Of a stretch of DNA of 21,799 nucleotides, positions 688-20,232 are shown one piece after another. The position numbers were made by a program, and so were the translations under genes. The stretch lies in IMG/VR virus record IMGVR_UViG_2690316325_000016, one strand, 5' to 3'. The stretch is from a virus. Its lineage: Duplodnaviria; Heunggongvirae; Uroviricota; Caudoviricetes. The notes below the pieces were generated by a model, which did not search any database, was not told the origin of the DNA, and saw only the letters and a program-made list of their open reading frames with translations. How positions within the stretch are numbered: position 1 is the stretch's first letter; every line of letters starts with the position of its first letter.

Positions 688-2445
688 TCACAGAATTAAC
701 AGGTCCTCATCAGGATCAAGCGTGGACAGAAAGTCATTCACGCCCCCGCCATTTACCAGAAAGCGGCTCATGGCTGTAAAAAGCGCAACAGGGCCGTCGA
801 TTTTGGCTTCCGGCGTGGATTTATTCGGGAAGATGTTGTCGTTTTTGTCCGGTTTTACAGTAACGTTAGACATCATCCAGTTCATGACCGGATGATTGCT
901 GTGATGGAAACGCCCGGCATAAACCAGTGATTCCGTTTCCTTCATGGCCTCTGACAGATTGCGGACCGTCTGCGGAACCTCCACCAGCGGTATCCCTTCT
1001 TCAGCCAGTGCCAGGCTGAACTGCATTGCGCTCCACGGGTCAAACCCCAGTTCCCTGAGGTTTTCACCGCCAATCCATTCCAGTAAGTCACTTTTTATCT
1101 GAGCATGATCGATAACATCACCATCCGTCAGGATGAGCTTATCCATCTCCGCCCACTTCCGGTAAAGTTCTGCCTGCTGCCGCGAGCATCGTTCCAGCCG
1201 TCCTTCCGGAAGCCAGAATTTAAAATCAGCATGAACATGTCCGTTATCGGTTCGCCAGAGTTTTGCCGCCGCACAGATATCAATCTTATGAGCAAGGTCG
1301 ACGCCGACCCACATGGGATATGTTTTCAGCTCATGTTGTGGAGCAATGTATTCGCACTTCTCCCACTTAATCATATCCATCCAGGCAGATTCGGCAGTGA
1401 CCCACACATTCATGTGTTTGGTAAAAAAATTCACCCGCGCAGAGACCTGCTCCTTCGCTTTTTTCGCCAGACGACGCAGATCATCCCAGCGTTTACAGAT
1501 GCCCAGGCCAGGATTCGCTTTCTGCCAGACCGTTTCATCAAACGGATCATCTCCCTCATCGAGCGTGTAAATGATCGCAAAGTAGGAGTCGTCTTTTACC
1601 GCGCCCTCCACGTCGCTGTTATAGCCTCGCAATACCTTAATGGCGTAATCGCGCTGCTCGTAGCAAATCCCTTCCTTGTTAAAGCCAGCCGTGGTGATGC
1701 CAAATAACAGAGACTGCAGACGGGCACCGGTTGCCGTTTCCAGAACGTCCCACACGTCACGGGTTTTATGAGCATGCAGCTCATCAATAATGGCGCAGTG
1801 GATGTTCAGACCGTCCAGGTTGTTTGCATCCGAGGAAAGCGGTTCAAATTTTGATGCGCTCTGCTCCTGGTAAATCGCCAGCTTGTTGAAATCAAACAAC
1901 CGCCCGAGTGTCGACCGGGCTTTTCTGACCATATTTTTGGCGTCTTCAAACACAATTCTGGCCTGGTCACGCGTGGTTGCGGCTGAATACACCTCAGCCC
2001 CGCCTTCACCATCTGCCCCCGTCATATACAGACCGATACCCGATGACAGGGTTGATTTTGCGTTTTTACGGGCAACTTCGTTGTATGCTGTCCGGAACCG
2101 GCGCACCATCACCGGGCGTCCACTGCCATCGCTGCGCATGACAACTTCCCCGGTTTCTTCATTCACCAGCGGAATGACAAAACCAAAAATATTAATGAGG
2201 ATAAACACATGCCAGTCCATCAACTCAATGGGCTGACCTGCCAGCGCCCCTTTCACATGGGGTACAAATTTGTAGAAATTAAGGATGTGCTGTGCACGGG
2301 GTTCACTGAAATAAATCCCCCGCTCTTCGCCGTACTTCAGATCATCAAGAAAACGCTGGCAGGCCAGACGGACAAATTCGCCAGCAACAATTTCTCCTGC
2401 AACAACACGTTCGGCGTAGCGGATCCCGTCAGCCACTTTTGCCAT
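688..2445 (-). CDS. Terminase large subunit
   Basis: 585 aa ORF with terminase ATPase/nuclease-like sequence; ATGA overlap with upstream small terminase subunit. Confidence 0.9.
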   Translation of the reverse strand: MAKVADGIRYAERVVAGEIVAGEFVRLACQRFLDDLKYGEERGIYFSEPRAQHILNFYKFVPHVKGALAGQPIELMDWHVFILINIFGFVIPLVNEETGEVVMRSDGSGRPVMVRRFRTAYNEVARKNAKSTLSSGIGLYMTGADGEGGAEVYSAATTRDQARIVFEDAKNMVRKARSTLGRLFDFNKLAIYQEQSASKFEPLSSDANNLDGLNIHCAIIDELHAHKTRDVWDVLETATGARLQSLLFGITTAGFNKEGICYEQRDYAIKVLRGYNSDVEGAVKDDSYFAIIYTLDEGDDPFDETVWQKANPGLGICKRWDDLRRLAKKAKEQVSARVNFFTKHMNVWVTAESAWMDMIKWEKCEYIAPQHELKTYPMWVGVDLAHKIDICAAAKLWRTDNGHVHADFKFWLPEGRLERCSRQQAELYRKWAEMDKLILTDGDVIDHAQIKSDLLEWIGGENLRELGFDPWSAMQFSLALAEEGIPLVEVPQTVRNLSEAMKETESLVYAGRFHHSNHPVMNWMMSNVTVKPDKNDNIFPNKSTPEAKIDGPVALFTAMSRFLVNGGGVNDFLSTLDPDEDLLIL

Positions 2446-2927
2446 CAGTCTCTCGCTTTTAAAAGCTCTGCCAGCGGATCAACATCATCCGGTCCGGCGG
2501 TATTTACTTTCGCCCGGCTTGCCGGTGACATACCAAACTCTGCAAGCATCGCCCGAATCCGCTTCCAGGCATCAGCCTTCATCGCAGCAGCCGGGTGTGC
2601 CTTGATCAGCACATCGCCATTCTGCGTTTCCGTGCGGTAGGTATAACCCTCAACATCGAGTATTTCGCAGTGATGCCGGTATTCGGTGTAGGCTTCCACC
2701 AGTAACTCGAGCGCACGTGCATCGAGCTGAGAAATGATCCCTTCCGCATTCAGCTCTTCCGCCATTCGCCTGAACCAGTACTTCCCCTGCGCCCCTAAAT
2801 GTTGCGGAATTTTAGGGAGACCTTTTTCATCCTTTTTAGCGGTTTTTTTGGAGTCTTTAACTGGCCGCTTTGAGGGGTTACCTCGTATCAAATGCAGGCG
2901 TGGCGGGGTTTTCGGGGGTCCAGACAT
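2445..2927 (-). CDS. Terminase small subunit (P27/HK97-like)
   Basis: 160 aa basic N-terminus, sits between HNH endonuclease and large terminase; stop overlaps terL start. Confidence 0.8.
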   Translation of the reverse strand: MSGPPKTPPRLHLIRGNPSKRPVKDSKKTAKKDEKGLPKIPQHLGAQGKYWFRRMAEELNAEGIISQLDARALELLVEAYTEYRHHCEILDVEGYTYRTETQNGDVLIKAHPAAAMKADAWKRIRAMLAEFGMSPASRAKVNTAGPDDVDPLAELLKARD

Positions 2928-3074
2928 AATCGGTTTTACCTATCAATCATTTAATCACATTCCAAAAAAAAGTTTTCGAACCTGCGGCGATGCGAGGAAA
3001 GGTCAGGCGGCGGTACTGAGCAGCCAGGGTTGCAGAGATTTGACCTGCCCCTCCCCTACAGATGGGAACTGTTA

Positions 3075-3425
3075 TCAATTGATGCGTTCGCGCGCTGTTT
3101 TTGCTTTATGACAGGGCCAGCACAGACTCTGCAGGTTACTGTCTGCATCCGTGCCACCATGAGCTTTCGGAATGATGTGGTCCACAGTTCTGGCTTCAAC
3201 GGCTCTCCCATTGCGCAGGCAGTTCTGACACAGATGATTATCACGCTTCAGTATGCGCGCACGTATGGCATCCCATTTCGAGCCATAGCCACGCTGGTGG
3301 CGGCTCAGTCCGCGTTGATGCTGTACCCATCCTTCGCCACGATGTTTATCGCAGTAACCAGAACTGTCTGTGGTTGTACCTGCACATCCACGCTTACGGC
3401 AGGCGCGTGGGATTCGTGGGGGCAT
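3075..3425 (-). CDS. HNH homing-type endonuclease (packaging-associated); alternative upstream start at 3524
   Basis: Cys-rich and His-containing HNH motifs (CQNC...HIIPKAHGG...CWPCH); GGAG 5 nt upstream of ATG 3425; HNH-terS-terL arrangement typical of cos phages. Confidence 0.8.
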   Translation of the reverse strand: MPPRIPRACRKRGCAGTTTDSSGYCDKHRGEGWVQHQRGLSRHQRGYGSKWDAIRARILKRDNHLCQNCLRNGRAVEARTVDHIIPKAHGGTDADSNLQSLCWPCHKAKTARERIN

Positions 3426-3545
3426 ATGTACTCCAATGAAGAAGCCACCGACATAGCCTCCTCCATTCATAGTGAAACTATTTTCATCTACCCAGTAATG
3501 AATTCTTTGTAGAGTTGTGATCAATACAACTCACTAATGGAGAGG

Positions 3546-3567
3546 CTTGTCCAACACGTTGGACAAG
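3546..3567 (+). other. Perfect 9 bp stem / 4 nt loop hairpin followed by T-rich tract (candidate terminator or packaging-region structure)
   Basis: cttgtccaa-cacg-ttggacaag then tttcctgtttgattt. Confidence 0.35.
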
Positions 3568-3647
3568 TTTCCTGTTTGATTTACTGGACACTATAGAAGG
3601 ACAGAATGCCTTCATCACTCGAATAACATCAATTAAGGAGGTTCAAC

Positions 3648-3770
3648 ATGTTTCATTCCACAAATCATCAGGCTGTAATTATGGCTGCATCAGCTTGTGC
3701 CACAGACCTTTTCCGCTTCACTTTGAGCCTGATTCATTTCTACCTGACCGGCTCGCCTCTATCTTTTTAA
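3648..3770 (+). CDS. Small ORF (40 aa) with consensus Shine-Dalgarno
   Basis: AAGGAGG at 3634-3640, 7 nt spacer, ATG 3648; translation MFHSTNHQAVIMAASACATDLFRFTLSLIHFYLTGSPLSF. Confidence 0.3.
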   Translation: MFHSTNHQAVIMAASACATDLFRFTLSLIHFYLTGSPLSF

Positions 3771-4275: not shown

Positions 4276-4737
4276 CTATCTGCACTGCTCATTAATATAC
4301 TTCTGGGTTCCTTCCAGTTGTTTTTGCATAGTGATCACCCTCTCTCTGAGGGTGAAATAATCCCGTTCAGCGGTGTCTGCCAGTCGGGGGCTGGTTGCAT
4401 TATCCACGCCGGAGGCGGTGGTGGCTTCACGCACTGACTGACAGACTGCTTTGATGTGCAACCGACGACGACCAGCGGCAACATCAGCGCGCAGAGTTTC
4501 ATTTTCAGCTTTCGCATTGGCTAATTCTCTCGAGTACTTTGCATCGAGTGCAGCAACATCACGCTGACGCTGCTGCATGTCAGCGATGGTGGCGATCGCC
4601 TGCTTCAGCTCACTGACTTTTTTATCACGCTGTTCTTTGTAGGCGATGGCGTTATCACGGTAATGATTGACCGCCCACGACAGGCAGACGATGATGCAGA
4701 TAACCAAAGCATAAATAATCGCGGCGACTCTGCTCAC
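4276..4737 (-). CDS. rz: Rz i-spanin (inner-membrane spanin); GTG start overlapping endolysin stop (track shows a TTG start at 4752)
   Basis: N-terminal TM segment then coiled-coil region; close match to recalled lambda Rz; GGGGGA upstream of GTG 4737. Confidence 0.9.
4335..4517 (-). CDS. rz1: Rz1 o-spanin lipoprotein, embedded in the +1 frame of Rz
   Basis: 60 aa, lipobox LVVVGC, proline-rich; fully nested within Rz. Confidence 0.9.
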
Positions 4738-5267
4738 TGCTCTATCCCCCAACAGGCTAATGCGCTTTCCTGGTCACGACGAATAACCTGTCCATAGCAG
4801 TTATTTGAACGTATGCGGCAATCGCGCCCACCATCTTTTATCCACCAGCGAATCGCCTCGCATGCGCCCTTACGATCACCGGCATTCAGCCGCTTATAAA
4901 ACGTCGACGGGAAACACTTACCGGGGCCAATGTTATAGGGACAGAATGACGCTATACCCGCTTTTTGTGGTTCGGTCAGTGGTACTTTAATATTGCGCTC
5001 CACCCATGCCAGCGCCTTATCACGCTCAATGGCGTTGACCTGGTCGCATTTTTCCTTCGACAGTTTCATACCGGGAAAAACGGGTTTTCCATCCACCATC
5101 GTGGCACCCCGACAGATGGTCCAGATGCCGGACCCATCGCGGTATGCCGTTGTGTGGTTACCTTCTTTTTCATCCAGAAACTGGTCGAGAATATCAGGCG
5201 CGGGCGCACCGACGGCAATCAGTGCCAGAACGGCAGCCGACAGGCCGTATCTGATTTTTGCGTTCAT
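4734..5267 (-). CDS. SAR endolysin (phage lysozyme, T4-lysozyme-like GH24, P21 R / RrrQ type)
   Basis: 177 aa; hydrophobic N-terminal signal-anchor-release segment [21 protein letters not shown] followed by lysozyme domain. Confidence 0.9.
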
Positions 5268-5330
5268 GGATATTTATCAGGATTTATCGGTTTCTGCCCA
5301 CGGACAGGTTTATCTGTTCCGGTCAGTGAC

Positions 5331-5681
5331 TTAAGGTTGTGATTCCGGAGGAGTCTTCAGAGAACCAGTAATTCTTCCCGGTAGCTTTCCTTTGTAGGTT
5401 ATCCATACATTCTGCGCCTCTAAAATTACGGGGCGCTTTTCCGGCGACTGCTCATCCCCTTCACATAACCCGGCAGCAACATCCAGGAAGACCTGTCTGA
5501 TGCTCATTCTGGCTGCTGCCTCATAAAACTCCAGCGCGGCACCTTCAACACGGTCCAGCGAGATGTCCAGGTCAAAAATTTCACCGTCAAAGCGTTTTTT
5601 GTCCCGTAACGCTAAAGTTACCGTAACTTTATTCTCAAAATTGCGGATCCCTTTCACAATCAGTTCATAGTTTTGAGTCAT
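5331..5681 (-). CDS. Hypothetical protein inserted between holin and endolysin (YdfR-like position)
   Basis: 116 aa ORF, GGGGAGAG SD upstream of ATG 5681; occupies same slot as ydfR in Qin-type lysis cassettes. Confidence 0.6.
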   Translation of the reverse strand: MTQNYELIVKGIRNFENKVTVTLALRDKKRFDGEIFDLDISLDRVEGAALEFYEAAARMSIRQVFLDVAAGLCEGDEQSPEKRPVILEAQNVWITYKGKLPGRITGSLKTPPESQP

Positions 5682-5685
5682 TGAA

Positions 5686-5901
5686 TTACTCTCCCCGTGC
5701 AGCCTTACGACGGTCCTCTCTGATTTTGAAATACAGGTTAGTCAGATATGTCAGCAGCCCAAACAGCAGACTCCCCAGCACGCCTATTGCCGCCCACTGA
5801 GACGGGGAAACCCTGTCCAGCAACTGCAGGAACCAGTAGCCCGTTCCCACCGCTGACGTGGTGTATGACACACCTGTTGTGATTTTTTCCATCTGGTCCA
5901 T
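5686..5901 (-). CDS. Pinholin, S21/EssQ-like class II holin with dual-start motif (Met1/Met4)
   Basis: 71 aa [10 protein letters not shown]...; two TM segments and C-terminal [13 protein letters not shown]; pairs with SAR endolysin. Confidence 0.85.
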
Positions 5902-6208
5902 ACCCCGTCTCCCGTTATCCGGAAGCTGACAACAATAAAAAAGCCACCAGTTAACTACTGATGGCTCTGATAACTCATGCAAGCGTCTCAGACGACCCAC
6001 TGACACTACCGGTGAGTTTAACGATACCTTCCATTTGACTGGCTCACTTTTTATGATGATGCCGGTGCATTTATCTCCAGCACCAGACTTTCTATCTCAA
6101 CGCCATACGTTGCATTTTTGGTAATATCCGTCAGCGTCAGTGCATTTAGTCCCACTGCCAGACTGTCTTTTATGGCCTGGAATGCCGGGCCAGTACGATG
6201 ACGTAGTA

Positions 6209-6397
6209 TCACTCCGGCTCAGTTGCACCACTGACCACCACATCACCTTCTGCTGCAATCGCCTGCATCAGGGTATAAGGGGTTATGGCCACCGGACTAC
6301 CAAACGGCTGCCAGCCCTCTTTCAGTTTATGTGTCAGCTTTTCCGCAAGATCTGACGGCGGCGCCGCCCTGACAACATCATAGTATTTAAATGCCAT
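6209..6397 (-). CDS. Hypothetical small phage protein (62 aa); possibly the N-terminal part of a frameshifted longer gene extending to 6051
   Basis: ATG 6397 with GGTGGAAAG SD; a protein-like reading frame continues in a different frame downstream to TAA at 6051. Confidence 0.45.
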   Translation of the reverse strand: MAFKYYDVVRAAPPSDLAEKLTHKLKEGWQPFGSPVAITPYTLMQAIAAEGDVVVSGATEPE

Positions 6398-6656: not shown

Positions 6657-6992
6657 ATGAAGTGGATTGTGATTGATACAGTTATCCAGCCATCATGCGG
6701 AATATCTTTTTCAGTCATATGGAGTAAAATAAAATTAATAATCTGGTATCAATCGGATGCTTTCTTACCTCCTGAAAGTATATTTACACTGACTCACACA
6801 GGCATCATGCTCAATAACAAAGTGCTACCTGTAACCATTTACAACGTAGTACCATTCAATAAAACATTCTGGAATTTAATCAAAAACAACCAGGAATGCC
6901 CTACAAATACAGATAACGTAATGAATGAATGCTTTAATAACCGTTGCACTCTGCAAATATGTCCTTATGGACTAAAACAACAAAGTCCATAA
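6657..6992 (+). CDS. AT-rich moron protein (111 aa), antisense to late operon
   Basis: AAGGAAAG SD 6 nt before ATG; TATACT -10 at 6611-6616; 11 bp stem hairpin at ORF end; 6 of 13 Ile codons are AUA. Confidence 0.5.
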
Positions 6993-6994
6993 GG
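6963..6994 (+). terminator. Hairpin (11 bp stem, 10 nt loop) at 3' end of plus-strand moron ORF
   Basis: ccttatggact-aaaacaacaa-agtccataagg; weak U-tract. Confidence 0.35.
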
Positions 6995-7009: not shown

Positions 7010-7048
7010 GACAAAATCAATATAAACAGCCCCTCCGGAGAGGGGCTG
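7010..7048 (-). terminator. Intrinsic terminator-like hairpin plus U-tract for minus-strand transcription
   Basis: 9 bp GC-rich stem cagcccctc/gaggggctg with cgga loop, followed on minus strand by TTTATATTGATTTTG. Confidence 0.5.
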
Positions 7049-7272
7049 GAGAGTGGCGCTATGTGCCATTGCATGGTGCCGGGTGCCTCCCGGTGAATTC
7101 AGTACCAGCACCTGAATCCGCGATTATCCCATATACCTACTCGCTGATTGCCCCTCCGCACAGGGGGATTCACCATGCCAGTTTCTTTTAACAAACTCCC
7201 CGCAAACCAGACAACAGTCAACCGCCTGAATTGTGAAGTATTTAAAAATTTCTCCCGCTAACTGATACCCGG

Positions 7273-7906: not shown

Positions 7907-7980
7907 CGCGCTGTACTGGATTCGAACCAGTGACCGATTGCTTAGAAGGCAATTGCTCTGTCCGGCTGAGCTAACAACGC
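7907..7980 (-). tRNA. tRNA-Arg (anticodon UCU), CCA not encoded
   Basis: Cloverleaf parsed by hand: acceptor GCGTTGT/ACAGCGC, D-arm GCTC/GAGC, anticodon loop CTTCTAA, T-arm ACTGG-TTCGAAT-CCAGT. Confidence 0.9.
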
Positions 7981-8080
7981 TGAATACCGATAATGGACCG
8001 CCATCGGGGACCCGCCCCCGCACCAACAACCCTGTTATCGTGTCGTCTGCTCTTCCTGATAAGCTAATGGCGGTTTGTGA

Positions 8081-8156
8081 TGGTGGCCCTTGCTGGATTT
8101 GAACCAGCGACCTGGCGATTATGAGTCGCTCGCTCTCACCACTGAGCTAAAGGGCC
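8081..8156 (-). tRNA. tRNA with CAU anticodon, ileX-like (tRNA-Ile2, lysidine) rather than Met; CCA encoded
   Basis: GGCCCTTTAGCTCAGTGGTGAGAGCGAGCGACTCATAATCGCCAGGTCGCTGGTTCAAATCCAGCAAGGGCCACCA; close to recalled E. coli ileX. Confidence 0.85.
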
Positions 8157-10901: not shown

Positions 10902-10930
10902 GGAAAAAACAAAACCCGCCGAAGCGGGTT
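10902..10930 (-). terminator. Intrinsic terminator about 70 nt downstream of hok
   Basis: Minus strand AACCCGC-TTCG-GCGGGTT followed by TTGTTTTTTCC. Confidence 0.55.
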
Positions 10931-10999: not shown

Positions 11000-11155
11000 T
11001 TACTCCTCAGGTTCGTAAGCTGTGAAGACAGCGACCTCCGTCTGGCCGGTTCGGATTCGTACCTCGCAGAGGTCTTTCCTCGTTACCAGTGCCGTCACTA
11101 TGACGGTTAAACAGATGACGATCAGGGCGATTAACATCGCCTTTTGCTGCTTCAT
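11000..11155 (-). CDS. hokD: Hok-family type I toxin (HokD/RelF-like), 51 aa
   Basis: MKQQKAMLIALIVICLTVIVTALVTRKDLCEVRIRTGQTEVAVFTAYEPEE; AAGGAG SD; overlapping short mok-like ORF 11152-11211. Confidence 0.85.
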   Translation of the reverse strand: MKQQKAMLIALIVICLTVIVTALVTRKDLCEVRIRTGQTEVAVFTAYEPEE

Positions 11156-11413
11156 AGCCTGCTTCTCCTTGACCTTTCGGTCCGTAAGAGGCTAATCTCT
11201 ATGTGTCGCATAGATATGGCCTCAGATTAATGTTAAGCGTCTTGCAGGACGCGTAATGTTAACTGGGGCTTTTCTCTATCTGCCTTTTGGTGTTCATGCC
11301 TGAGACAGATAGCCTCAAGCACCCGCAGTCATTCTACTTAACTAAGATTTCCCCGCAAACCGTTTTTGTCCGGCACAGTAAATATCCAACTAAACCAATG
11401 GCGTTCGCTGTAT

Positions 11414-11593
11414 TTACCGCCAGTATTCAATGCACATGACCGCCATGAACACCCCTAAAAAAAGGGCATTTATATATCCAAATATTAATATCAAAACATC
11501 AACTTTTTCCATATACCTTGCTGTGAAGATGATGGGCATACATGATACGAACAACCAGAACGCAACAAACAAAAACTGCAATGCGTTTTTCAT
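11414..11593 (-). CDS. Small two-TM membrane protein (59 aa), AT-rich
   Basis: AGGAGG SD 4 nt upstream of ATG 11593; MKNALQFLFVAFWLFVSCMPIIFTARYMEKVDVLILIFGYINALFLGVFMAVMCIEYWR. Confidence 0.5.
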   Translation of the reverse strand: MKNALQFLFVAFWLFVSCMPIIFTARYMEKVDVLILIFGYINALFLGVFMAVMCIEYWR

Positions 11594-11763
11594 TATTCCT
11601 CCTACAATCAATGTGCAATTACATTTAAACACACCTCAGTTTGGCCGGACATATAAATATCTAAACCAGAAAAAATCACTTACATAGCGTTACAAACTCT
11701 TTAGTCTAAATATTCATCGTAAAACATTCCCCATACTTATCAGCCCGTTCTGCGCCAGGTAGC

Positions 11764-12080
11764 TCATTGCCTTATCTGGGAATCTGTAATCAGGTTTCCG
11801 GATGCTGGTGGATTCTCGCGTTTTAGTTGTTCATAAAAGTGCACAGCTTTAACCAGTTCTTCTGATGTAACCGGGACTGGCGGGGCAGTGAATAAGGCCT
11901 GAATTTCATAGTTCGGCCTGTCGTTACAATCCTCTTTTTTCGGTACATATTTCCAGTCACCAGACCACTACTTCCCCTGAAAGTCCGTAACGCCTTTTTT
12001 TTCACGTAGCGATATCGCCATGCCACTGTTTTTGCTTGCCCCGCCGTTTCATGCCCTTCCTGATAATTAACCTCGCTCAT
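11764..12080 (-). pseudogene. Probable disrupted gene: frameshift at an A8 homopolymer plus in-frame TAG
   Basis: Frame 0 is protein-like up to KKK (A8 tract at 11995-12002); a different frame carries the protein-like tail ...WSGDWKYVPKKEDCNDRPNYEIQALFTAPPVPVTSEELVKAVHFYEQLKRENPP... Confidence 0.35.
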
Positions 12081-15187: not shown

Positions 15188-15826
15188 ATGAGCAAGCAAA
15201 CTATATCTGAACGCATAACCCAACGTATGCATGCGCTAAACCTGAAAGGCAAAGACCTTGTCAATGGCACTGGCGCATCAAAAGGCTCCGTAAGTCAATG
15301 GATGAACGGTGGAGGAGCGCCGTCCTCGCGTTACATAAGTTCACTGGCAAAAATATTGAAAGTAAACGAAAATTGGCTTCTTAATGGAGGAGAGTTAAAT
15401 ACAGGTGATTCGCTTGATCTATCTTTACCGCCGATAAAAACGGTTCCGCTACTATCACTTCAGCAGGCAGCAAGCTGGAGTGATTATATGAAAAATTCCT
15501 CAATAACCTCTTGTGTGCAGCTTGTCGGAGAAATCCCGGTCAATACCTTTGCAGTTGTTCTAGAGAGTGACAGTATGTCAACATCTGGTGGGGGAGTTTC
15601 CATCCCAAATGGTTCAACAGTTTTTGTTGATCCCGATCGAACCGTACAACCAGGAAATATTGTCCTTGCCTTACCCAAAGGGACCACAACACCTGTCATT
15701 CGTAAACTGGAGATAGAAGGGCCGGATATTCTTTTAGTCCCCACGAATCCTCGCTACCCTTCAATTATGCTGGATGATCTATCTTGCATATTGGGCGTAT
15801 GCTTTAAAATTCAACAAGATATTTAA
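15188..15826 (+). CDS. CI-type prophage repressor (N-terminal HTH_XRE + C-terminal S24 LexA-like peptidase domain)
   Basis: 212 aa; HTH at N-terminus, catalytic Ser-Lys region in C-terminal half; divergent from cro. Confidence 0.85.
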   Translation: MSKQTISERITQRMHALNLKGKDLVNGTGASKGSVSQWMNGGGAPSSRYISSLAKILKVNENWLLNGGELNTGDSLDLSLPPIKTVPLLSLQQAASWSDYMKNSSITSCVQLVGEIPVNTFAVVLESDSMSTSGGGVSIPNGSTVFVDPDRTVQPGNIVLALPKGTTTPVIRKLEIEGPDILLVPTNPRYPSIMLDDLSCILGVCFKIQQDI

Positions 15827-15890
15827 CCAACCTCATCTATTTGATTAACTGTATGCCATCGTGGTGATGGCTTAACAGCTGCCTGCTTAA

Positions 15891-15939
15891 AATGTTTTGA
15901 TAAAAAAACATTGACCTGAAAAGTTTGTTTTTCTAAACT
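15891..15939 (+). promoter_or_regulatory. PL-like promoter with overlapping operator
   Basis: Inverted repeat AATGTTTT-N6-AAAACATT (15891-15912) overlapping -35 TTGACC (15911-15916); 17 nt spacer; -10 TAAACT (15934-15939). Confidence 0.45.
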
Positions 15940-16992: not shown

Positions 16993-17050
16993 TTTCTGGT
17001 GACGTTTGGCGGTATCAGTTTTACTCCGTGACTGCTCTGCCGCCCTTTTT
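16993..17050 (+). ncRNA. dicF: DicF small regulatory RNA (ftsZ-targeting), processed from dicB operon transcript
   Basis: Sequence TTTCTGGTGACGTTTGGCGGTATCAGTTTTACTCCGTGACTGCTCTGCCGCCCTTTTT matches recalled DicF; terminal hairpin plus U-tract; correct spacing between ydfC and dicB. Confidence 0.8.
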
Positions 17051-17688: not shown

Positions 17689-20160
17689 ATGAGTAAAGTC
17701 TTTATTTGCGCCGCTATTCCTGACGAACTGGCAACAAGGGAAGAAGGCGCTGTGGCTGTAGCCACAGCCATTGAAGCTGGCGACGAACGCCGTGCTCGAG
17801 CAAAATTTCACTGGCAATTCCTGGAACATTATCCGGCTGCTCAGGACTGCGCTTATAAATTTATTGTCTGCGAGGATAAACCTGGCATACCCCGCCCTGC
17901 CCTCGATTCATGGGATGCTGAATATATGCAGGAAAACCGCTGGGATGAGGAGTCTGCTTCTTTTGTCCCGGTTGAGACTGAATCCGATCCGATGAACGTC
18001 ACTTTTGACAAGCTGGCCCCTGAAGTACAGAACGCTGTCATGGTTAAGTTCGACACATGTGAAAACATCACCGTTGATATGGTTATTAGCGCACAGGAAT
18101 TGTTGCAGGAAGACATGGCAACATTCGACGGACATATCGTTGAAGCGTTGATGAAAATGCCAGAAGTTAACGCCATGTATCCGGAGCTTAAGTTGCACGC
18201 CATTGGGTGGGTTAAGCATAAATGTATTCCTGGTACTAAATGGCCCGAAATTCAGGCAGAGATGCGCATCTGGAAAAAACGTCGCGAAGGTGAACGCAAG
18301 GAAACCGGAAAATACACGTCTGTTGTTGATCTCGCCCGCGCCAGAGCCAATCAACAGTACACTGAAAATTCAACAGGAAAAATCAGCCCGGTCATTGCTG
18401 CCATTCATCGCGAATACAAGCAGACATGGAAAACACTGGATGACGAACTGGCCTACGCTCTCTGGCCTAGTGATGTGGATGCCGGAAACATTGACGGCAG
18501 CATCCATCGCTGGGCAAAAAAAGAAGTTATCGACAACGACCGCGAAGACTGGAAGCGTATCTCGGCATCAATGCGCAAACAGCCTGATGCCCTTCGCTAC
18601 GACCGCCAAACTATTTTTGGCCTTGTCCGTGAGCGTCCGATCGACATTCACAAAGATCCCGTAGCACTGAACAAATATATCTGCGAATACCTGACGACAA
18701 AGGGCGTGTTTGAGAATGAAGAAACAGACCTGGGCACTGTTGATGTTCTCCAGTCATCAGAAACACAAACTGATGCAGTGGAAACTGAGGTATCTGATAT
18801 CCCAAAAAATGAAACCGCGCCGGAAGCTGAACCATCTGTAGAGCGTGAGGGGCCGTTCTATTTCCTCTTCGCAGATAAGGACGGAGAAAAATACGGTCGC
18901 GCAAACAAACTCTCTGGTCTGGATAAGGCACTGGCTGCTGGCGCCACTGAAATCACAAAAGAAGAATATTTTGCCCGAAAAAATGGCACATACACGGGCT
19001 TACCGCAAAATGTAGATACCGCTGAAGATTCAGAACAACCAGAGCCGATAAAAGTTACCGCTGACGAAGTAAACAAAATTATGCAGGCAGCCAATATCAG
19101 CCAGCCTGACGCCGATAAGTTGCTTGCTGCATCACGTGGTGAATTTGTTGAAGGGATTAGTGACCCGAATGATCCGAAATGGGTTAAGGGGCTCCAGACC
19201 CGCGATTCTGTGAACCAGAACCAGCATGAATCGGAACGGAACTACCAAAAAGCGGAACAAAACAGTCCAAATGCGTTACAAAACGAGCCAGAAACGAAAC
19301 AGCCTGAACCAGTAGCGCAACAGGAAGTGGAAAAAGTCTGCACCGCCTGCGGTCAGACCGGCGGCGGCAACTGCCCTGATTGTGGCGCGGTGATGGGCGA
19401 CGCAACATACCAAGAAACATTCGATGAAGAGTATCAGGTTGAAGTTCAGGAAGATGATCCGGAGGAAATGGAAGGCGCTGAACATCCACACAAGGAGAAC
19501 ACTGGCGGCAATCAGCATCACAATAGCGATAATGAAACTGGCGAGACGGCAGATCACCCAATTAAGGTGAACGGTCATCACGAAATCACATCCACCAGCA
19601 GGACGTGTGACCATCTAATGATCGACCTTGAAACCATGGGAAAAAATCCTGATGCCCCGATCATCTCAATAGGTGCAATATTTTTCGATCCGCAAACCGG
19701 AGATATGGGACCGGAATTTAGTAAGACTATCGATCTGGAAACTGCTGGCGGAGTCATTGATCGGGACACCATTAAATGGTGGCTTAAGCAATCACGCGAA
19801 GCGCAATCTGCCATTATGACCGATGAAATCCCGTTAGATGATGCACTGTTACAATTGCGAGAATTTATCGACGAAAACTCCGGTGAATTTTTTGTTCAGG
19901 TTTGGGGAAATGGAGCCAACTTCGACAACACGATTTTGCGCCGTTCATACGAACGGCAGGGGATCCCCTGCCCGTGGCGTTACTACAACGATCGCGATGT
20001 ACGCACAATCGTTGAGCTGGGGAAAGCCATAGACTTCGATGCCAGAACGGCTATTCCATTCGAAGGTGAGCGCCATAATGCACTTGATGACGCCCGTTAC
20101 CAGGCAAAATACGTTTCAGTTATCTGGCAAAAACTGATCCCGAGTCAGGCTGATTCTTAA
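17689..20160 (+). CDS. Large early protein: YdfE/RecE-like N-terminal and middle region, Cys4 zinc ribbon, and C-terminal DnaQ-like (DEDDh) 3'-5' exonuclease domain
   Basis: GAGG SD before ATG 17689; RecE-like segment [28 protein letters not shown]; exo motifs [25 protein letters not shown]. Confidence 0.75.
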   Translation: [823 protein letters not shown]

Positions 20161-20171
20161 TGTTCAACTGT

Positions 20172-20203
20172 CGCCGGTTGTGACTGGTATTCTGCAACCG
20201 GCG
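20172..20203 (+). other. 9 bp stem hairpin between exonuclease gene and xis
   Basis: cgccggttg-14 nt loop-caaccggcg; no U-tract. Confidence 0.3.
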
Positions 20204-20232
20204 CTCGTCTGATGTAAGAGATAAAGAAATCG

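Follow-up and report, generated by a model that had tools for sequence, protein, structure and literature searches.

An overlooked open reading frame upstream of hok in Qin-type prophages of Escherichia coli probably encodes an orphan membrane micro-protein

The prophage sequence analysed here (21,799 nucleotides, hereafter the window) contains, next to a hok/sok locus, an open reading frame of 59 codons, ORF59, which in our estimation is probably (probability of about 0.6) a genuine protein-coding gene that has been overlooked. It would belong to an orphan family limited to E. coli and Shigella and consisting of two lineages. Lineage A, to which the copy analysed here belongs, occupies a cargo slot in the nin region of Qin-type lambdoid prophages, where a complete hok/sok locus directly follows it. 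Lineage B is found in an islet left by a decayed prophage between ttcA and uspF, and a fragment of hok comes directly after it. The view that ORF59 is translated into a micro-protein from a strong ribosome-binding site beside hok is supported by the sequence comparisons, and it is the coding signature of the lineage B paralogue that places this view on a better footing.

The window represents a degraded, cryptic Qin-type lambdoid prophage of E. coli with several pseudogenes, in which the genes are arranged in the order int-xis, dicB, DicF, ydfABC, repressor and cro, replication, nin region, Q, tRNAs and lysis. It is near-identical to the sequence of strain MCJCHV-1, to which a 601-nt query (positions 11200–11800) gave a 100% match. 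Rfam models identified an STnc100 sRNA (132 bits; 7018–7207, minus strand), two tRNAs downstream of Q (7907–8156, minus strand; Arg and Ile according to PGAP) and DicF (16994–17045, plus strand), and an IraM homologue is found at 6658–6993. The repressor candidate ('LexA family protein', 15584–15922, plus strand) is just 112 aa long, possibly as a result of truncation, and frameshifts affect both the exonuclease gene (17787–20227) and the DUF6645 gene (4437–6397). The early-right operon of the prophage corresponds to the minus strand, and ORF59 is placed on it between a frameshifted phrog_660 gene (on the 5' side) and a complete hok/sok locus (on the 3' side):

11764–12080, minus strand: phrog_660 gene, 111 aa when intact, frameshifted here (PGAP pseudogene, 'frameshifted; internal stop')
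11594–11763, minus strand: AT-rich untranslated gap of 170 nt 5' of ORF59, presumed to be a regulatory or promoter region
11598–11603, minus strand: Shine-Dalgarno sequence AGGAGG, separated from the ORF59 ATG by a 4-nt spacer (AATA)
11414–11593, minus strand: ORF59 coding sequence, 59 codons plus TAA (ATG at 11593–11591, TAA at 11416–11414)
11457–11463: A7/T7 homopolymer inside ORF59 (codons 44–46), to which rare frameshift variants map
11430–11687, plus strand: antisense 85-aa shadow ORF, 'hornerin' in phage records ON470612 and ON470619
11325–11413, minus strand: spacer of 89 nt between the ORF59 stop codon and the start of the hok mRNA
11358–11353 and 11336–11331, minus strand: TTGCGG and TAGAAT, 16 nt apart, putative hok promoter, assigned by analogy
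11153–11324, minus strand: hok mRNA leader with the sok-mok region (Rfam RF01794, 106.7 bits, E=1e-23)
11000–11155, minus strand: hok (HokD-type) toxin gene, 51 aa (Pfam PF01848 HOK_GEF, E=1e-23; hokD in PGAP)
10913–10930, minus strand: intrinsic terminator ending the hok transcript (search for terminator-like sites)
Lineage B copy of ORF59: locus L204, 5001–5180 (NZ_CP141085.1, 211107–211283)

The promoter in the 89-nt spacer is presumably that of hok, an assignment that we base on the promoter and 5' end of R1 hok. The initial annotation had described the frame as lying between a disrupted gene and the Hok toxin, in a locally AT-rich patch. Both statements agree with the layout given above, in which the PGAP pseudogene and hokD flank ORF59, and with the GC content, which falls to 0.34–0.37 around ORF59 (0.34–0.36 across 11375–11750) compared to 0.477 for the whole window. 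The gap preceding ORF59 measures 212 nt where the phrog_660 gene is intact and can be partly aligned with the region upstream of the lineage B paralogue. Elsewhere the nin genes are tightly packed, so that an untranslated stretch of 170–212 nt stands out as exceptional and hints at a regulatory region belonging to ORF59 itself; a search of this gap in lineage A for a consensus sigma-70 promoter found none. The terminator at 10913–10930 is the only terminator-like site on the minus strand between 10850 and 12150. Since no terminator separates ORF59 from hok, transcripts of ORF59 should run into hok/sok. ORF59 is co-oriented with the early-right operon and is therefore expected to be transcribed on induction.

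The start signal was correctly recognised in the initial annotation, which reported a 59-aa frame behind a perfect AGGAGG and did not state the strand, which is the minus strand. The predicted product is MKNALQFLFVAFWLFVSCMPIIFTARYMEKVDVLILIFGYINALFLGVFMAVMCIEYWR. In a minority allele the Shine-Dalgarno sequence reads AGGGGG (variant at 11600). The length of ORF59 alone is no evidence for a gene, because ATG-initiated frames of at least 59 aa arise in 23% of Markov-1 random sequences of 429 nt with matched composition when all six frames are considered (P∼0.23). What raises ORF59 above chance is the perfect Shine-Dalgarno sequence at a working distance, together with conservation in a divergent paralogue. 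It nevertheless has to be considered that ORF59 is not functional now, either because the frame merely happens to be open in an AT-rich spacer, on its T-rich strand, or because a gene that once had a function is now drifting in cryptic prophages. Apart from its unexceptional length, this reading draws on the composition of the coding strand (38% T), given that T-rich DNA yields hydrophobic peptides by default, and on the absence of both a PGAP call and a promoter consensus. The perfect Shine-Dalgarno sequence argues against it, as does the comparison with lineage B.

A homology search had been recommended in the initial annotation, and a search of this kind uncovered lineage B. Initial protein searches with ORF59 returned only near-identical sequences from E. 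coli and Shigella. A tblastn search of plasmid records retrieved a paralogue that is 40.7% identical over residues 1–59 of ORF59 (E=1e-10), and a phmmer search of 1.84 billion representative sequences returned the same lineage B protein (E=3.7e-9). The latter is encoded by exactly 59 codons (MRKILMYLCISIWIVISCVPIILTSEYLTEASIMALMFGHANALCIGVFISIIYIECWR), begins at the same M1 and ends with the same IE[YC]WR-stop; its Shine-Dalgarno sequence, AGGGA, is found 8 nt upstream of the start. Lineage B is located between ttcA and uspF (the Rac attachment region) in B2-type strains CFT073, Nissle 1917, 536 and LF82, within a 2.3 kb islet of prophage debris with fragments of integrase, hok and ABC-permease genes, and it is the only reading frame of this decayed islet that has stayed intact. 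Its stop codon is followed, 55 nt on, by a C-terminal piece of hok that is interrupted by an in-frame stop (VTKKDLHQVRI*GGQMEVDIYT). In both lineages ORF59 thus precedes hok on the 5' side and is co-oriented with it, and because lineage B also adjoins a hok fragment, the pairing of ORF59 with hok is ancestral.

The two proteins align from end to end without a single indel and share 24 of their 59 residues. Identity is distributed over the first, second and third codon positions as 34, 43 and 28 of 59, respectively; pN and pS are 0.33 and 0.72, and dN/dS is ∼0.19. When the same 72 substitutions were placed at random, the frame stayed open with a probability of 0.028 and at least 24 identical residues were retained with a probability of 0.006. 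The upstream DNA of lineages A and B, by comparison, is alignable only with several indels. Survival of frame, start, stop and length through ∼40% nucleotide divergence, at such a dN/dS and with such probabilities, is difficult to reconcile with a frame that was open by accident.

Lineage A was detected in 1568 of the 5426 complete E. coli genomes (29%), always with at least 95% identity, and lineage B in 1045 of them (19%). Strain CFT073 carries both copies and E. coli K-12 neither. Searches of GTDB genomes, metagenome contigs and protein collections yielded no homologues outside E. coli and Shigella, and no distant relatives beyond lineages A and B were retrieved by phmmer from the 1.84 billion representatives, by a profile run against 5.8 billion proteins or by blastn within E. 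coli. A match in Asticcacaulis (L208; 27 residues, 41%) was judged to be due to chance, and several 'plasmid' matches, one of them labelled Klebsiella oxytoca, proved to be fragments of the same E. coli prophage. In none of the records examined does PGAP place a CDS on the same strand as ORF59, be it in lineage A or in lineage B, and the ttcA–uspF site of the paralogue carries no annotation in the 30 records listed.

Several other interpretations of the same DNA were rejected. The antisense 'hornerin' frame runs across ORF59, where PGAP has also annotated an opposite-strand ORF in NZ_CP148542. As this frame is interrupted by stops in 71 of 196 related loci, and by two stops in lineage B, 'hornerin' is a misannotation and not a gene. 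A longer version of ORF59 that starts at a GTG and comprises 72 aa ('c1418' in CFT073) was excluded because in lineage B an in-frame TAA is found six codons upstream of the start; in addition, GAGG abuts this GTG with a spacer of 1 nt. The name 'c1418' leads in the literature only to an unrelated locus tag. ORF59 is not the decayed 3' part of the phrog_660 gene either, intact homologues of which encode 111–119 aa and end before ORF59. An RNA element in place of a gene was likewise discarded, the region having a folding z-score of -1.0 and no match to an Rfam family.

In order to estimate how well ORF59 is maintained, 116 IMG/VR loci were picked by an upstream 30-mer, so that the sample was not selected for ORF59 itself; the frame is intact in 114 of them. 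Among all loci ORF59 is intact in 268 of 271 (∼99%). The adjacent phrog_660 gene is intact in 22 of 256, and the rarity of intact copies makes a single disruption, in an ancestor shared by most carriers, probable. ORF59 is always accompanied by the hok leader and, being co-oriented with hok, always immediately precedes it; the hok CDS is intact in about two thirds of the loci. In 46 loci (e.g. L172 and L003) hok is cut by an insertion sequence exactly at its ATG (position 11155 of the window) and ORF59 is still intact. The integrity of ORF59 is independent of hok. In PhiR42_1 (L003) the insertion sequence at the hok start is followed by flxA-ydfV-relBE, and insertion at this point looks like the route to the Qin arrangement of E. 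coli K-12, where hokD (relF) is without its own leader and sok.

These observations bear on the possibility that the role of ORF59 is mainly exerted in cis, with the peptide being of secondary importance: transcription or translation of ORF59 would send read-through transcripts into hok/sok, where they would oppose the convergent sok promoter or lengthen the hok mRNA at its 5' end, and in this way tune the toxin system. The invariable position and orientation relative to hok and the lack of an intervening terminator are in line with such a role, and so is the conservation in lineage B of ∼24 nt past the ORF59 stop codon. We nevertheless consider it very improbable. The amino acid-level conservation between lineages A and B would be left unexplained, ORF59 is intact in the 46 loci with an insertion sequence at the hok ATG and in lineage B, where the hok leader is deleted, and most prophage hok loci, for example hokW of 933W and of other Stx phages, are without ORF59.

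The initial annotation had further held that absence of the frame from closely related prophages with conserved flanks would speak against a gene. Such absence does occur: in vB_EcoS-689R5 and vB_EcoM-606R7 the interval that separates hok from the phrog_660 gene (or from the p58 gene) is taken up by other genes. Because close relatives hold different genes between the conserved flanks and hok, we regard this position as a variable cargo slot and ORF59 as accessory. What the absence indicates, therefore, is that ORF59 is accessory cargo rather than that it is not a gene.

Variation within the two lineages is of a different kind from the divergence between them. Lineage A contains 13 non-synonymous variant sites and one synonymous site, and lineage B two and none; all five common lineage-A polymorphisms (V16A, V31I, I37M, Y40H and M53T) change the residue. 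In the neighbouring genes of the same loci the ratio of non-synonymous to synonymous variants is 0.4–1.6, and compared to these no purifying selection on ORF59 is visible in the recent past. The ratio in ORF59 is not significantly above the neutral value of ∼4:1 given by the site counts, and constraint as strong as that on the neighbouring genes is excluded. This excess of non-synonymous variants fits relaxed selection, a time lag of purifying selection or diversifying selection. The window itself carries I37 and Y40; a common lineage-A allele and lineage B share M37 and H40, which are thus probably ancestral, so that the allele of the window probably includes two derived replacements in the second predicted helix. 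Frameshift variants of ORF59 are rare. Their products, which end in FFRGVHGGHVH, form the low-frequency database clusters P0019, P0021, P0024 and P0025, and at locus L158 a 1-nt gap is present at 11463, within the T7 run. They could be either sequencing errors or real on/off variants.

The recent variation can be cited for a frame that is not functional now, since it is consistent with an omega of ∼1 and differs significantly from that of the neighbouring genes; the degraded state of the host prophage with its several pseudogenes and the existence of frameshift alleles point the same way. A high ratio of non-synonymous to synonymous variants among very close relatives is, however, reportedly a known time-lag effect. 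Moreover, ∼99% of the loci have an intact ORF59 beside a gene that is usually broken, and in the decayed lineage B islet it is the one frame that has remained open. Taken together with the coding signature, this leaves a non-functional ORF59 as a doubtful, albeit not negligible, explanation, and we continue to favour a genuine gene.

Two hydrophobic helices had been suggested for the product in the initial annotation. They are recovered in the hydropathy profile, with hydrophobic segments at residues ∼4–24 and 33–55 and a GRAVY value of 1.31, as well as by AlphaFold2, which models a helical hairpin (helix 2–26, loop 27–31, helix 32–58; mean pLDDT 72). The accompanying term 'two-TM' is less secure: because the conserved S17-C18 pair fits the lipobox rule, the protein may instead consist of a signal peptide and one transmembrane segment. 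The residues invariant between A and B are M1, L5, L8, W13, S17, C18, P20, I21, I22, T24, L36, F38, G39, N42, A43, L44, E56, W58 and R59, and G47 is conserved in most alleles. The most conserved block, S17-C18-x-P20-I-I-x-T24 (SCxPIIxT), is positioned at the outer end of helix 1, and helix 2 displays a face of small residues resembling a glycine zipper (G39/A43/G47), with N42 in addition. Since lineage B carries R2 and K3 at its N-terminus and only acidic charges in the loop, an N-in/C-in topology is suggested, in which the periplasmic loop would be short.

At Cys18, lineage A, lineage B and all alleles tested fit PROSITE rule PS00013 for the lipobox, which calls for a Cys at positions 15–35 preceded by a positively charged n-region and an uncharged h-region; only 4–5% of composition-matched shuffled sequences do the same. 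ORF59 might accordingly encode a small lipoprotein, with a signal peptide of residues 1–17, cleavage by signal peptidase II at L-F-V/A-S before C18 and a lipid-anchored peptide of 42 residues with one transmembrane segment. It would then be functionally nearer to small lipoproteins of phages and plasmids, whether these act in exclusion (Llp of T5, Cor of phi80 and N15) or in lysis (entericidin, colicin lysis proteins). Both paralogues possess Cys18, K or R among residues 1–7 and, ahead of [AGS]-C, a hydrophobic stretch that carries no charge; S17, C18 and P20 are invariant across the lineages, and the length of the putative signal peptide is typical for lipoproteins. On the other hand, position -3 is occupied by F in lineage A and V in lineage B and not by the preferred L, hydrophobicity continues just past Cys18 (MPIIFT), where AlphaFold models an unbroken helix, and the Pfam lipid-attachment models, which are short and insensitive, gave no match. 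PS00013 is known to produce false positives on transmembrane helices, and two paralogues do not amount to independent tests. A lipoprotein is consequently a reading that we hold open with some scepticism.

No Pfam family matched ORF59 at E≤0.1, including Hok/Gef (PF01848), GhoT/OrtT and the lipid-attachment models, and neither paralogue had a match in PHROGs, NCBIfam, PADLOC, PDB sequences or Rfam; a defence, toxin or holin family was thus not among the results. Comparison of the AlphaFold hairpin with viral structures using Foldseek was uninformative, with no hits other than generic helical hairpins (best E=0.66). Nor is an upstream membrane ORF mentioned in a survey of Hok diversity. To judge from these searches, the ORF59 family is prophage cargo coding for a predicted micro-membrane protein, of a kind that is familiar but without homology to known families.

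The neighbouring Hok/Gef toxins offer themselves for comparison. They share with ORF59 the small size, the hydrophobicity and the (in the case of ORF59, predicted) location in the inner membrane, as well as a place in the nin region, and the two are linked in both lineages. Unlike Hok/Gef, with which it has no sequence similarity, ORF59 has two hydrophobic helices instead of one and displays neither a mok-type leader nor a fold-back structure nor a detected antisense RNA; of the properties of type I toxin–antitoxin systems it shows that of a small hydrophobic peptide. GhoT and OrtT of E. coli, two-TM toxins of about 57 aa, resemble it in size and in the predicted two-helix hairpin, but a GhoS-like partner and a Pfam match are lacking in ORF59. 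That ORF59 is a membrane toxin of any description is, in our opinion, unlikely. A particular form of this idea, in which ORF59 is a second, type I-like toxin held in check by an antisense RNA (for example Sok produced by read-through, or an sRNA that has escaped recognition) and damages the inner membrane in the manner of Hok or GhoT, appears less likely still. It can be argued for from the fact that in both paralogues a small and very hydrophobic peptide is encoded beside a bona fide type I toxin gene, and from the glycine-zipper-like face G39-A43-G47. Against it stand the absence of promoter-like sites on the plus strand across ORF59 and of Rfam families there beyond the sok of hok, the unremarkable predicted mRNA folding (z=-1.0) with a strong Shine-Dalgarno sequence that is not evidently sequestered, and the lack of a match to the Hok and GhoT families. 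Moreover, ORF59 remains intact where hok has been lost through insertion sequences or deletion, and in the lineage B islet it has no visible partner.

Class II holins and pinholins (two transmembrane helices, about 70 aa) likewise have two helices with the N-in/C-in orientation that is predicted for ORF59. In contrast to them, ORF59 lacks a charged C-terminal domain, its tail amounting to four residues (EYWR), and it is found about 8 kb from the lysis cassette (1123–3758), which includes its own class II holin (3543–3758).

A parallel may also be drawn with tiny envelope proteins that phages carry as accessory cargo, such as Imm of T4, the moron product gp15 of HK97, Llp of T5 and Cor of phi80 and N15. 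ORF59 has in common with these exclusion proteins a composition atypical of the phage and a patchy presence among relatives, both of which also characterise phage morons, and possibly a lipobox. It differs in showing no homology to them (PHROGs, Pfam, PADLOC), in that no promoter or terminator of its own, such as morons possess, was found, and in having no soluble domain, the mature part being nearly all transmembrane helix.

If ORF59 is a gene, as we favour, its transcription would result from read-through of the early-right operon on induction, possibly supplemented by a weak promoter in the AT-rich gap. The product would be inserted in the inner membrane with both termini inside, and its function would reside in the conserved polar and small residues, that is, S17-C18-x-P20-I-I-x-T24 and the face formed by G39, N42-A43 and G47. 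This pattern may serve helix packing or oligomerisation and, in the case of S17-C18, lipid modification. We propose, tentatively and as a speculation that is more apt to fail than to hold, that ORF59 is an accessory prophage envelope protein of the superinfection-exclusion type, acting at the inner membrane or its periplasmic face; this proposal is based on the variable cargo slot, the link to hok and the fast amino acid turnover. Modulation of some host membrane protein is a somewhat shakier suggestion, and the same degree of doubt applies to ORF59 being a gene that is no longer under selection.

Membrane micro-proteins are reported to emerge de novo from thymine-rich DNA, and ORF59 resembles such proteins in its taxonomic restriction, its T-rich strand and a hydrophobicity that is possible from composition alone. 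Set against this likeness, a non-coding ancestral locus was not identified in the comparisons, and two diverged paralogues already exist. It is a long shot, but conceivable, that ORF59 belongs to a young E. coli-specific family, for which T-rich prophage DNA may have been the de novo source, and which encodes a lipid-anchored or hairpin inner-membrane micro-protein under diversifying selection (all five common polymorphisms and 13 of 14 variant sites change the amino acid) that acts with hok/sok, or backs it up, in phage exclusion or abortive infection, with the copy in B2 strains representing a domesticated survivor of a decayed prophage.

If ORF59 is expressed, then ∼29% of sequenced E. coli would contain an unannotated gene for a membrane protein and another 19% its paralogue. 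Carriers of the family include the model pathogens and probiotics CFT073, 536, LF82 and Nissle 1917, and the gene adjoins a well-studied toxin–antitoxin locus. Should it have no phenotype, ORF59 would be one more conserved hypothetical small membrane protein. It provides a test case for companions of prophage hok genes and for the origin and persistence of orphan hydrophobic micro-proteins, as well as a cheap one for the annotation of small proteins, since PGAP misses both copies and other pipelines pick the wrong strand. Close to ORF59, PGAP reports a 59-aa 'hypothetical protein' (WP_001112736.1; 10778–10957, plus strand) that is antisense to the end of a rem-like gene and spans the region of the hok terminator, and which looks like another doubtful call.
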